From assembly GCA_000993565.1 (NCBI GenBank), contig LBWK01000001.1:300208-364207 (forward strand): a stretch of DNA of 64,000 bases. Direction: 5' to 3'. Position numbers and translations under genes: made by a program. The DNA is from a candidate division WS6 bacterium GW2011_GWF2_39_15 (GTDB lineage Bacteria > Patescibacteriota > Dojkabacteria > SC72). The notes below the pieces were generated by a model. The model was given only the letters and a program-made list of their open reading frames with translations, was not told the DNA's origin and did no database searches. Positions 29,908 through 35,259 of the stretch are shown one piece after another; position 1 is the first letter of the stretch, and each line of letters starts with the position of its first letter.

Positions 29908-32900
29908 ATGGGACTTAACGCCGGTGGTATGCAAGAAATACATCCTGATATCCAGTCAGATAGAGAGTTAATAACCTCTGGTAAAGTTCCTCAGGGAACT
30001 GCTGAAGCTAATGACAAATTAAATACTCCAGTAGTAGATATTACAAAGACAACTGGTTATTATGGGAATGATTTAACAACCGATCCTCTCCCGCTTACTG
30101 CTGAAGCGACAGCAAAGATACTTAGAAGAGGTCCTGCACAAAATGAAGATAATGGAGAAACAGGCTTGAAAGCCGGCGAGGAAAGACCTAAAACTCAATC
30201 TGCTATTCCTGTAGCCAACGGATCAGCTTATGTCGAATCAGTTAGTCCTTCAACCCCTGCACAGCAGACACCAGACACCGAAGGACTTGATCAACTTAAT
30301 ACCCCCTTATATACGCTTACTGGAGGAGGAGAGACCACTTCGACTAATGTAACTACGCCAAATGCAACAGAAGGTAAAGCAGGTAAAAACGGTACTGATA
30401 CATCAGATGACTTAGTAGCAAAGCTAAGATCAATGTTGTCCCAGGCTGACAAAGATAAGCCTAAAGAACACACTATAGAAACACCTGTAGCCCAGGATCT
30501 CAATCAGGCAGTTACAGCTTTGGCTGCAGAAGTTGCTAAGGAACCTGAAAATAATTCAAAGAAGGAAGAGTTGAACGGCTTAAAGGAATTAAGTCAATCT
30601 GTAACGAACCTCTCACAACAGATAAACCAGGTGAAAATAGAAATCACAAATCAAGTTAATACTCAGGTTGCCCAAATTACTGCAAAGATGGAAGAATCTA
30701 AAGATAAGCTGGCAGGAACGGTAAACCACTATTATATGCAAGGGGGCTCAGTATTTCACGGGACAGTAGGAGCAGGTACACATATAGAAGTTACAAATAC
30801 GGCAAGTAATTTTAATACAGGAGCAGCAGGAATAAGCGTTAGAAATACAGCAGACCACGGAAGTACAATAAACAATGGCAATATTGTAGATGCAGGTGTT
30901 AATCTGGGTATACTAGATTTGAATGCAATGATGGAAGAAGCTGAAAATTTGGACAGGCTTGCAGACGAACCAGAAGCGCCAACTTCTCTAAGTGAGGCGG
31001 CAAGGGACACAGCCGATAAGGCGAGAGAGCTTACAGAGGATATAAAGACAAGAAAAACTGATCGAGTAACAGATCCGGCAGTTACACCTGATTCAAGTTC
31101 AACAACTCATCCACCCGTAATAAAACCTCAACCAAATGTAACACCGAACGATAATCCTCCTACACCTCCACAACCGGCAGTAGCAGTAACAGATGACAGT
31201 AGTGAGCATAAAGACACCGGAGTAACCCCAGAAGAGCAACCTACTTCCGATCCTAAGAAAGCAGCAGAGAATCTAGTAGGGCCATTGACTCCTGAAGAGT
31301 CACAGGAATTTGATAATGCGAATGAAAAGAAAGGTTTTCTCTTCAGCATAAAGAGAATGTTCAGCGGTGAAAACTGGAAGAGATGGGTACCAACAGTGAT
31401 AGGGTCGATCGCAGGTTCATTCGGGGTAAAACTGTTTGCAGGAGCAGCTCTATCAATGGGTCCAATTGGAACCGCATTACTCGGAGGTGCAATGGCTGGT
31501 TTTGCCATATATTCAGGATATAGAGCTATCAAGAACTTAAGTGAGGCAGCCAAGGCGGAAGGTAAATCTGTATGGCAGGTAATGGGCAACTTGGATTTTG
31601 TAAAAGGAGCCTTACTTGGAGGATTAATTTCTGGGGTAGGTAAAGCTTCAGCGAAGTTTATCCCTGGATTCGGTTCGCTTATGGCACTTGGACTTGAAGG
31701 AGGAACTTCGTGGCTATTTGAAAATCACCTTAACAAGAAACAGCAGGAATTAGTTAACAAATACATGGATACATACCAGGCACGCAGGTATGCAAATCTT
31801 AAGGATAAAGGATATGTCATTAGAGGTGCTGAAGGAGCACCTGCTGTAGGAATGGAATCCATACTTAAAGATATGACAAGTGCACCTTCAGAATCAGAAA
31901 AGAAGGTAGCAAAGAGAGCTGCACTTGCTTCCCTTATACATCTCTACAGCATAACTAAGGATGATGCCCATAAATTTGTTGAGTATACGATAAAGGAGAA
32001 CGGTGTCGATAAGGTGATTAAGGTTGATATTACACAAATTGCGATTGATGAAGCAGAAGGAAGTACAGAGAAATACAGAATGCTTCAACTTAAAGATACT
32101 GACAAGATTAATGTCGAGAAATTTATAGATACATTAGATACAGCCAAACTTACATCAGCGATTCAAGATGCATGGAACAAAACCGATGCAACTAAGAGGG
32201 CTGATATGGCTAAGGATCTTGTAAACCTCTTCGTTGGCTTGGAAGGCACAGAAGTAGAGAAGATTATGTCGGAAGAGAGAAAGAGCTATCTCTCATGGAT
32301 CAACTTCACAACTGGGTTACACTTTGGTATGGCGGCAGTAAATGTTGGATCCTCTCTTGCAGGAGCTTACGGAGCATTCAGAGACAATTTTGGTGTCAAT
32401 CATGATGCACAGGGAGTAAACACCTCAGATTCTCAACAAGCAACAGAAGATTATAGAAGTGCCCATCCAGAAGCCCCGCAGGCAGAAGTAGAGAGGGTAG
32501 TAAATGCTGAAGGCCACATAATTGATAAGGTAGATGTAGACGGAGGCGGCGTAGACTACTACGTCGACCAAACTACAAACCAATATGTTGTACTTTCTGG
32601 GACCGGTGCTGAAAGCGTATTTGAAATACAACACCCGGATCTTGGACAGGTAACCGCAACTGAAGTAACTACCCACGGAGATACAGGCATTGTTGCCACT
32701 TTGAGTGATAATGCAGGAAAAGTTGTTGGTGTAACATATGCCGACTCTACTGGACACATTGGAGTTTTGGATATGAACGGCGTAGGTCAGCATCTATTTG
32801 CAGGTGGAGGAGAGAGCCCAATACACGGAGTAACTCTCACTGATATACAGCCAAATGGTGATGCAACATTAGTTTTAGACAATGTAAACCATCAAGTAAA

Positions 32901-35259: not shown

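Follow-up and report, generated by a model that had tools for sequence, protein, structure and literature searches.

Several described systems resemble, in one respect or another, the gene that we treat here. HubP and FimV, the polar hub proteins of Gammaproteobacteria, have a signal/LysM domain at the N terminus, cross the membrane with one helix and carry a FimV motif at the C terminus, and the EsaA/YueB and PIP-type proteins of Firmicutes are polytopic proteins of about 1000 residues in which the ectodomain makes up most of the chain. The terminal-organelle proteins HMW1, HMW3 and P200 of Mycoplasma have acidic proline-rich domains and EAGR boxes; they are cytoskeletal and not multi-pass membrane proteins. 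Polymorphic toxin systems with orphan C-terminal cassettes have reportedly been described by Zhang, Aravind and colleagues in 2012, and invertible switches are represented by the Rci shufflon and by the vsa/hsd loci of Mycoplasma pulmonis with HvsR. We have compared with these systems a giant open reading frame (ORF), UT34_C0001G0333, which occupies 29908..35259 on the plus strand of a 64-kb window of contig LBWK01000001.1 (positions 300,208 to 364,207) from candidate division WS6 bacterium GW2011_GWF2_39_15, a member of the Dojkabacteria within the Candidate Phyla Radiation (CPR). This window is the span of the genome that was analysed, and statements on copies of the family or of its modules refer to it.

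We tentatively favour the reading that the giant is a resident multi-pass protein of the cytoplasmic membrane, specific to its lineage, which would serve as a membrane-anchored scaffold together with two small acidic partner proteins, and we give this reading a little less than an even chance. A scaffold of this kind would join an envelope-binding ectodomain to large interaction platforms in the cytoplasm. Lineage-specific membrane proteins that lack annotation are common in CPR genomes. The first-pass annotation of this DNA had described a very large membrane protein without a signal peptide from a small-genome bacterium, and this description holds; its picture of a giant surface protein is not supported, because the Lys/Arg-poor composition and the flanking hydrophobic segments expected of an extracytoplasmic domain belong to one large segment only, residues 829-1155 or about 18% of the chain, and this is so in each of the 12 members of the family.

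The ORF represents a genuine gene. It starts with ATG and is open throughout for 1783 codons, in agreement with the single 5.35-kb frame that had been claimed, and its product is identical to the NCBI entry 'hypothetical protein UT34_C0001G0333'. All peptide strings cited in the first-pass annotation were located in it: a coiled-coil-like stretch (residues 222-250), a Gly-rich module (275-326), a Pro-rich linker (402-423), two hydrophobic Gly/Ala blocks (493-535 and 1630-1664) and three G-x-x-Y...W strings (1250-1271, 1427-1447 and 1514-1534). The annotation had also considered that the frame might be an assembly chimera, and a repeat inside the giant that recurs in a gene close by might indeed confuse an assembler, or the long frame could be a fused gene call. 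However, the same 1783-aa product with the same neighbours occurs on seven contigs from separate assemblies (ENA, Logan and others), the longest of which measures 868,911 bp, and in independent homologues from other species the N-terminal tail, anchor, core, modules and C-terminal hairpin follow each other in the same order. Because collinear homologues and seven assemblies coincide, an assembly chimera is ruled out, and we regard an artefact of either kind as practically negligible.

The giant belongs to a family that becomes visible only with a sensitive search. HMMER was run exhaustively against 1.84 billion cluster representatives, with residues 490-1689 as the query, and it matched 15 proteins. 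Eleven of these are large (989-2028 aa) and align over query positions ~1-724, corresponding to residues 490-1213 of the giant, at 24-37% identity and with E-values from 1.6e-104 to 2.8e-25; the others are an 825-aa partial sequence, a 105-aa fragment identical to the giant and two fragments of the C-terminal membrane region. With the family alignment as the query, 12 related loci (L numbers below; family proteins carry P numbers), each spanning 10-25 kb, were recovered from the JGI metagenome contigs and from genomes sampled at one per GTDB species. Six of them are labelled as Dojkabacteria metagenome-assembled genomes and a seventh as Saccharibacteria; the other five are metagenome contigs without a label, and two of these five coincide with contigs of genome loci. 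When the giant was used alone as the query for related loci, no relative was found, and word-index homology searches with the giant, with a neighbouring 515-aa ORF and with the family alignment returned only the query itself; these last nulls carry little weight, since words of low complexity saturated the candidate cap and the 515-aa query missed even the giant, with which it shares a module. The family is held together by the anchor motif, by a GP[IV]G hairpin and by a collinear core (residues ~490-1213) with DxDxDG and G-D-S columns, and the later modules and the C-terminal hairpin are also common to most members. It has so far been seen only in Dojkabacteria-type genomes, the locus labelled Saccharibacteria included.

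The family does not connect to anything characterised. The giant matched no Pfam family at E <= 0.01 and no PHROGs family, its sole NCBIfam line, TIGR04211, reached 17 bits where the cut-off is 65, and the core of the homologues likewise matched no family in these library scans. Sequence and profile searches gave no usable match in the PDB for the family, and we found no published paper that treats the gene or its relatives. The earlier statement that no enzyme motif is visible therefore stands as far as the Pfam and NCBIfam scans reach, since neither assigned the giant to a known enzyme family, and clear homology to a characterised family, which the same annotation had named as an outcome that would speak against it, did not emerge. 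An origin as a phage tape-measure protein or from a mobile element was dropped, because tblastn of the core against phage and plasmid collections gave no match and the 515-aa ORF had none there either.

How the chain is threaded through the membrane can be read from hydropathy and charge. By the Kyte-Doolittle scale the giant has four hydrophobic blocks (residues 493-538, 1156-1177, 1625-1668 and 1727-1747), which is the number given in the first-pass annotation, but the count rises to six or seven once family-averaged hydropathy is added, which brings in weaker conserved segments at 567-602 and 801-828. The hydrophobic segments conserved in the family are 492-541 (a hairpin), 567-602 (weak), 801-828, 1156-1182 and 1626-1668 (a second hairpin); residues 1727-1747 are hydrophobic by single-sequence hydropathy only. 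As had been claimed, there is no signal peptide: the highest hydropathy over ten residues within positions 1-60 is 0.28, the first hydrophobic segment begins at residue 492, and none of the ten homologues with a complete N terminus has a signal peptide. Lysine plus arginine (K+R) amount to 10-17% of domain 1 (residues 603-800) and of residues 1183-1625 in most members, and the loops designated b-c and h-i, with 16% and 27.6% K+R, fit the positive-inside rule. Because a 491-residue N-terminal region precedes the first hydrophobic segment, a signal peptide is absent and the charges follow a positive-inside pattern, we infer that the N terminus lies inside. In the resulting model the N terminus, domain 1 and residues 1183-1625 would be cytoplasmic, residues 829-1155 and a 36-residue tail would lie outside, and the hairpins would dip in and out of the membrane, so that about 68% of the residues are predicted to be cytoplasmic, about 20% outside and about 12% within the membrane. 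An alternative mode of surface display, sortase anchoring, was rejected: besides the missing signal peptide there is no LPXTG-type sorting signal at the C terminus, and the only LPxT[GA]-like strings lie at residues 61 and 100. The giant contains no cysteine.

The membrane part begins with a conserved anchor. The anchor motif L-T-x-E-E...G-F-x-x-[ST]-I-K-R-x-F-S-G-x-x-W-K and the Gly-rich transmembrane hairpin behind it, as defined by pattern and hydropathy, span residues 455-541 (31270..31530, plus strand). The pattern, also given as G-F-x-A-T-I-K-R-M-F-S-G-x-x-W-K after an L-[TS]-x-E-E start, occurs in 11 of the 12 members, and the GP[IV]G hairpin turn follows directly. Family-averaged hydropathy peaks here (residues 492-511 and 497-541), and the conserved amphipathic motif together with the hairpin at 492-541 would fix the N-terminal tail to the membrane. 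Downstream lies a weaker Gly-rich hydrophobic pair (residues 567-602; 31606..31713, plus strand; family hydropathy ~1.1), which may be either a hairpin or a membrane-associated segment.

Conserved domain 1 (residues 603-800; 31714..32307, plus strand) is an alpha/beta domain, Lys/Arg-rich in all 12 members (K+R 11.5-15.8%), with a family identity of 0.32-0.39, and would be located in the cytoplasm. From it a conserved hydrophobic segment (residues 801-828; 32308..32391, plus strand), identified by family hydropathy and corresponding to the terminal part of a long helix in the AlphaFold2 (AF2) model, would carry the chain outward. A conserved transmembrane segment at residues 1156-1182 (33373..33453, plus strand), assigned by hydropathy and helical in both AF2 models, would return it to the cytoplasm.

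Between these two helices lies conserved domain 2, 327 residues in length (829-1155; 32392..33372, plus strand), a beta-rich domain with a helical part that is probably the sole large extracytoplasmic part of the protein. It is acidic and poor in Lys and Arg, with 2.8% K+R and a net charge of -37 in the giant, and 3.1-6.6% and -17 to -48 in 11 homologues. Its invariant columns are D876-x-D878-x-D-G-x-x-D883 and G1026-D-S, and the homologues read I-D-L-D-G-D-G-x-x-D-L at the first of them, by its motif a putative calcium-type loop. A weak match of the domain to FG-GAP_3 recurs in 3 of the 12 members, with E = 0.07 at best. Membership in the FG-GAP/VCBS repeat proteins was rejected on account of the single DxDxDG loop, of these few matches, none better than E = 0.07, and of the missing propeller in the AF2 model.

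An exposed domain raises the question of whether the giant attaches its bearer to a host cell, as the first-pass annotation had proposed for episymbionts; the domain would then bind the surface of the host. The general lifestyle of CPR bacteria would suit such an adhesin, as would the glycosyltransferase genes for the cell envelope upstream and the DxDxDG loop with its FG-GAP-like character, which recalls integrin-like adhesion modules. Against this, only about one fifth of the residues are predicted outside, no adhesin repeat family is matched, and the sorting signal is missing even though sortases are encoded in the window. Furthermore, domain 2 is among the best conserved parts of the giant and not the most variable one, and it is the cytoplasmic tail that varies, the opposite of what diversification of a host receptor-binding protein predicts. 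The conservation of domain 2 fits binding to a conserved structure of the cell itself better than an arms race with a host receptor, and we consider the adhesin unlikely. In the scaffold reading, the domain probably contacts the cell's own envelope.

The variable tail is the N-terminal region (residues 1-454; 29908..31269, plus strand), which is hypervariable, acidic and of low complexity and would be cytoplasmic. Identity to the giant is highest (0.2-0.4) in the anchor, in domain 1 and in the outside domain, and lowest in the N-terminal 450 residues (0.06-0.15 per 50-aa block), to the point that no sequence similarity is detectable between the N termini of the giant and of its homologues. Residues 1-491 carry a net charge of -31. 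They would form a fast-evolving acidic tail, probably disordered, with a helical segment and a Gly/Asn-rich module, that stays in the cytoplasm.

Three features of these tails were noted in passing. The string P-[DE]-I-[GEQ] occurs within the first 16 residues in 4 of the 11 members with a complete N terminus (the giant, at residues 1-20 = 29908-29967, and P0006, P0007 and P0009), with MGLNAGGMQEIHPDIQ and MNPGGEQNLNPDIGEQ as examples, and could be a short targeting or partner-binding peptide. A module of ~60 residues (YDGVMINGKLYIKMPQIVFDPNGGEQRITKWVPMEQLGNV...NWQQD) is present in one or two copies in the N-terminal regions of P0006, P0007, P0010 and P0014 and is missing from the giant. In the tail of P0009 (L008, positions 5294-5644) three tandem 117-nt repeats encode 39 residues each at 87-93% identity, which shows that the N-terminal tail evolves by repeat expansion.

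Behind the second membrane crossing follows a Lys/Glu-rich region (residues 1183-1625; 33454..34782, plus strand; K+R 17.4%) that would again be cytoplasmic. It contains modules made of a G-x-x-Y...W motif plus a helix at residues ~1247-1290, 1312-1378, 1424-1470, 1511-1535 and 1548-1590; the unit is a beta hairpin followed by a helix that ends in a motif such as L-A-x-x-I. The pattern G..Y.{3,14}W, which was chosen after the data had been seen, occurs three times against 0.36 expected (5000 shuffles, P = 0.006), each time within residues 1250-1534. Four modules are conserved position by position in P0003, P0004, P0005, P0008 and P0012 and in L003, L005, L006 and L009, and the module at ~1548-1590 aligns with the last module of the orthologues. 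The third of the cited strings (residues 1514-1534, in the module at 1511-1535) is an insertion specific to the giant, whereas the other instances have counterparts in the orthologues. The first-pass annotation had spoken of loosely repeated modules of about 70-100 residues. A recurring motif is a fair description, but common ancestry of the units is not established: profile-profile comparison with hhalign was not significant (best probability 8.9%), and we therefore call the modules recurring motifs and not proven repeats. A BLAST self-comparison of the giant, run without a control check, printed no off-diagonal match.

The chain would be re-anchored at its end by the canonical C-terminal module (residues 1626-1783; 34783..35256, plus strand), which was delimited by hydropathy, charge and alignment. 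Its parts are a K-G-R-K-L-L-K anchor, a Gly-rich hairpin (1626-1668), a highly charged helix with 27.6% K+R (1669-1726), a hydrophobic stretch (1727-1747) and a conserved tail that ends in L-G-K; it is the hairpin and the last hydrophobic helix, residues 1626-1747, that would hold the chain at the membrane. The module is present in six related loci and is absent or replaced in L007 and in L008/L012. P0006 and P0010 have one alternative C-terminal region in common, P0009 and P0010 another, and P0008 is truncated.

Two small genes accompany the giant. The upstream one, up163 (29415..29906, plus strand), encodes an acidic protein of 163 residues that matches no known family. Its stop codon lies one base before the ATG of the giant, gene junctions in the operon being tight, and the best promoter-like site in the region (TTGACA-17-TACTAT, 29348-29376) lies 5' of up163; given this site and the one-base gap, up163 and the giant look co-transcribed. 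Homologues of up163 (40-47% identity) stand directly upstream of the giant homologue in all loci that reach so far (L004-L008, L010, L012). The downstream gene, dn147 (35286..35729, plus strand), encodes an acidic protein of 147 residues, with homologues at 28-38% identity directly downstream of the giant in L003, L005, L006, L009, L010 and L011. All 7 genomes whose giant has the canonical C-terminal module contain dn147 (the window and the six loci just named), and neither of the 2 genomes that lack the module does (L007; L008/L012), a clean link in a small sample of 7 plus 2 genomes. This co-occurrence suggests that the 147-aa protein works together with the C-terminal module of the giant. 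In the scaffold reading both small proteins would be partners of the giant, the 147-aa one being tied to its C-terminal membrane module. Both are apparently helical, and neither has a match in Pfam, NCBIfam, PHROGs or the PDB. Paralogy of the two was not supported, as BLASTP returned nothing and hhalign gave a probability of 1.2%.

The variation of the C termini and the behaviour of dn147 also fit a different explanation, namely that the giant is an exported effector or a pore-forming toxin, which would need no signal peptide and would insert into the membrane of a host or competitor through its Gly-rich hairpins. The up163 product would then be a chaperone, the dn147 product an immunity protein or chaperone, and one C terminus could be swapped for another in the way known from polymorphic toxins. 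The missing signal peptide, the bilobed Gly-rich hydrophobic hairpins, the alternative C-terminal regions, the restriction of dn147 to loci with the canonical membrane module and the small, acidic, apparently helical nature of both neighbours are all in keeping with such an effector. A VirD4/TrwB-like ATPase is encoded 8 kb away, but on the other strand in a conserved DNA-repair block, and no secretion genes adjoin the giant. There is one copy of the giant per 10-25 kb locus, at a fixed position among housekeeping genes; its conservation resides in the central membrane core and not in an N-terminal trafficking domain; its hydrophobic segments are spread over 1250 residues with the positive-inside pattern typical of a resident polytopic protein; and no toxin, LXG, WXG, Rhs or immunity family was matched. 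We consider an exported effector or toxin improbable.

The same points define how far the giant resembles polymorphic toxin systems. It shares with them C termini that vary across orthologues and a small downstream gene that tracks one C-terminal type, both of which were found in a small sample, and the nearby 515-aa ORF, which has only a short recombination-prone module in common with the giant, resembles an orphan cassette. In contrast to these systems, the giant has no recognised trafficking, repeat or toxin domain, its conserved part is the membrane core, and it is present once per locus in a housekeeping context. Moreover, the cassette-like 515-aa ORF is inverted and shares a module near the N terminus, not a pre-toxin junction.

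Returning to the scaffold reading, a parallel can be drawn with HubP/FimV. Like these, the giant is very large and would have a modest ectodomain that binds the envelope, an anchorage in the membrane and a long, acidic, repeat-containing cytoplasmic platform. However, it matches neither LysM nor FimV, has six or seven hydrophobic segments and has a predicted ectodomain that is internal. It was therefore not placed among the LysM-anchored hub proteins, and the resemblance would be one of functional analogy only. With EsaA/YueB and the PIP-type proteins the giant shares a large extracytoplasmic domain, here a predicted one, bracketed by transmembrane segments, but it differs in that about 68% of it is predicted to be cytoplasmic, in that no family match exists and in that no type VII secretion genes were identified nearby. 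The Mycoplasma proteins HMW1, HMW3 and P200, too, are large, belong to small-genome bacteria and have acidic Pro-rich low-complexity regions and short aromatic/Gly beta-hairpin motifs, a likeness that our tests do not support; unlike them, the giant is a multi-pass protein, and EAGR_box did not match it in the Pfam scan.

Structure prediction gives a partial view. Two AF2 models were computed on family alignments of 12-13 sequences, covering residues 450-1215 and 1150-1783. They show an alpha/beta domain 1 (predicted local distance difference test, pLDDT, 70-86 at residues ~650-790), an outside domain composed of a beta-rich part and five helices (pLDDT mostly 65-88 at ~840-1140), long helices through the hydrophobic segments and, in the Lys-rich region, helix / three-strand / helix modules (pLDDT 77-88 at ~1410-1500).

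Several points weigh against the scaffold reading. Confidence of the AF2 models is low overall (mean pLDDT 59 for residues 450-1215 and 54 for 1150-1783), and Foldseek against the PDB gave no match at E <= 0.001 for either model, such that no fold supports any function. The topology derives from hydropathy and charge bias only, and the segment at 567-602 is weak; a single crossing at this place would flip the model, though it would contradict the charge pattern. The exhaustive HMMER query covered residues 490-1689. The word 'scaffold' is argued from architecture and not from homology, and an effector or toxin would likewise be in keeping with the variability of the C termini, with the small acidic genes on either side and with the Gly-zipper-like hairpins.

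The Dojkabacteria are uncultured. An isolated 'hypothetical protein' has now become a defined family with a conserved three-gene operon, a fixed chromosomal address by an Xer/dif locus, a proposed topology that lends itself to testing, in which a single ectodomain of 327 residues is combined with large platforms in the cytoplasm, and a partner gene that tracks one membrane module. This provides concrete targets for proteomics, complex prediction and imaging, and it corrects the expectation that giant CPR proteins of such a kind are mainly surface adhesins.

The address is defined by a gene order that is kept in all loci reaching far enough: the 163-aa homologue, the giant, the 147-aa homologue and then, convergent on the minus strand, the recombinase, a 271-aa protein of unknown function and ruvB; ruvA, ruvC and yebC come next in those relatives' loci that were examined by ORF listing. 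The neighbours within the window are gyrB, gyrA, glycosyltransferases and sortases upstream, and ruvB, ruvA, ruvC, yebC, dnaB and genes for a pseudouridine synthase and a release factor downstream. The surroundings are ordinary chromosome with housekeeping genes, and the giant locus is not mobile.

One element of this genome departs from the common order. The 515-aa ORF UT34_C0001G0335 (35741..37288, minus strand) is convergent with the giant, and its residues ~15-66 copy the giant's Gly-rich module; BLASTP aligns the two proteins at 62% over 89 residues. At the DNA level the copy appears as an inverted repeat, found by a repeat search of the window, with two arms of 164 nt that are 90% complementary. 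Arm 1 (30723..30886, plus strand) encodes residues 275-326 of the giant, the Gly/Asn-rich module YYMQGGSVFHG...NNGNI, and arm 2 (37090..37253, minus strand) falls within the 5' part of the 515-aa ORF. The arms are sharply bounded and do not differ in codon phase between the two coding strands, and over the 52 codons that they have in common the nucleotides differ at 12 of 157 positions, with seven nonsynonymous and four synonymous codons. The ORF has no homologue in any related locus and is unique to the GW2011_GWF2_39_15 genome among the loci compared, and beyond the module it has no match in Pfam, NCBIfam, PHROGs, the PDB or the phage and plasmid collections. At the place equivalent to the module, the homologues of the giant have a helix and then a Gly/Asn-rich stretch with no detectable sequence similarity to it. 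The module was probably native to the giant and then copied into the 515-aa ORF. The C-terminal ~300 residues of this ORF contain ...IGGHARAILS...GGYVIHYVDPMEGG... and a single Cys (SPAGCQLL), strings that loosely resemble the His and Cys motifs of papain-like peptidases in permuted order; no family or PDB match goes with them.

Convergent ORFs with an inverted repeat in phase invite comparison with invertible, shufflon-like switches. Recombination between the arms would invert 30887..37089 and thereby swap all that lies 3' of the module, yielding on the one hand residues 1 to ~326 of the giant fused to the tail of the 515-aa protein, and on the other hand the short N terminus of the 515-aa protein fused to the membrane body of the giant. 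The arms as assembled are flanked by GCAGGAACGGTAAACCAC...TAGATGCAGGTGTTAATC and GTTGAATCTTCAAATGAA...CCGTCACAAAGACTAGTC, and the inverted form would read GCAGGAACGGTAAACCAC...CCGTCACAAAGACTAGTC and GTTGAATCTTCAAATGAA...TAGATGCAGGTGTTAATC. The likeness to Rci and vsa/hsd is that in-frame inverted repeats lie in two convergent ORFs with a tyrosine recombinase gene adjacent, here next to the 515-aa ORF; the arms are real, both chimeras would stay in frame, and by the geometry of the inversion dn147 would remain downstream of the giant's C terminus. The differences are that here there is one repeat pair, with arms diverged to 90-92%, that only a single orientation occurs in 7 of 7 assembled contigs, and that the recombinase is kept in relatives that have no such repeats and has a dif-like site of its own. 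No inverted repeat of at least 40 nt was found in L003-L009 and no 515-like gene in L003-L012, and the 12 differences between the arms, with more replacement than silent changes, argue against frequent exchange or gene conversion. Three database searches, of low sensitivity, found no chimeric protein, and a scan of metagenome contigs for one of the predicted chimeric junctions gave 0 matches but is uninformative, since the parental locus was likewise not recovered from that collection, which appears to lack this population. We consider a switch of this kind very unlikely.

The recombinase itself is best understood without the repeat. It is an Xer-like tyrosine recombinase of 436 residues (37334..38644, minus strand; Phage_integrase E = 2.3e-33) that scores ~177 bits against the XerC/XerD models, below their equivalog cut-offs. 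All eight related loci that reach this far have an orthologue (53-57% identity) in the same place, and in loci with dn147 the recombinase gene comes directly after dn147. Because it is present in relatives that have neither a 515-like gene nor the repeat, it is an ancestral neighbour and not repeat-specific, and the idea of a recombinase dedicated to a switch was rejected on these grounds and because of its own dif-like site. This site, ACCGAGTATAA-TCGCTC-TTATATGCGGT (38817..38844, minus strand), is 28 bp long (11 + 6 + 11) and is located 173 nt 5' of the start codon of the recombinase gene. The window has no second match to it and 100 shuffles gave none, both arms recur exactly in four other species (L003, L005, L006, L009), and the site is the invariant block of the spacer alignment. 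We take the element to be dif-like on the basis of the dif consensus, namely the 11 + 6 + 11 layout with the inner signature ATAA-N6-TTAT. A single Xer gene beside its dif site is the arrangement of the XerS/difSL and XerH/difH systems.

The position on the chromosome is in line with this assignment. At ~35.7 kb the genes of the left side, on the plus strand, meet those of the right side, on the minus strand, and the GC skew, positive up to there, becomes negative at ~36 kb of the window, which is consistent with a replication terminus at ~35.7-36 kb. The recombinase is probably the Xer of the chromosome, most simply its dimer resolvase, and its nearness would then be no evidence for an inversion system. 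If the dif reading holds, no more than 4 kb separate the giant operon from dif in these genomes. It is conceivable, though we rate it as more doubtful still than the switch as such, that a housekeeping Xer-type recombinase (or RecA) occasionally inverts 30887..37089, which would amount to phase variation in a coding region at the replication terminus of a CPR bacterium. If true, the inversion would bring the whole membrane body of the giant under another promoter and attach it to an N terminus of 14 residues, and would fuse its 326-residue cytoplasmic tail to a soluble domain of 450 residues.

The dif-like site is part of a 438-nt spacer between the recombinase and the 271-aa ORF (38645-39082, minus strand), which has near-invariant blocks across seven Dojkabacteria genomes (with the equivalents in L003 and L005-L009), whereas the proteins flanking it are only 32-57% identical. 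The ends of the spacer, AGTAGGGG and CCCCTACT, can pair as a closing helix of 12 bp, and local hairpins keep their pairing through G-U changes on the minus strand. These features suggest that the spacer encodes a structured RNA of ~460 nt; Rfam returned nothing for it, even at E <= 1. The spacer also contains TGTGGATAA, the complement of the consensus DnaA box.

Finally, three large ORFs of the window deserve mention. The 840-aa ATPase (43582-46104, minus strand), encoded in the xer-ruvBAC block, has weak matches to TrwB/VirD4 and to HerA (DUF87), is ~69% identical across Dojkabacteria, far above its neighbours, and is retained in the five loci that reach so far; it may be an FtsK-like DNA translocase instead of a secretion coupling protein. 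Among the glycosyltransferase genes lie ORFs of 1006 aa (19980-23000, minus strand) and 546 aa (24829-26469, plus strand), neither of which has a Pfam or PHROGs match. No homologue of the 1006-aa ORF was found in the related loci, and the 546-aa ORF has one in L007.

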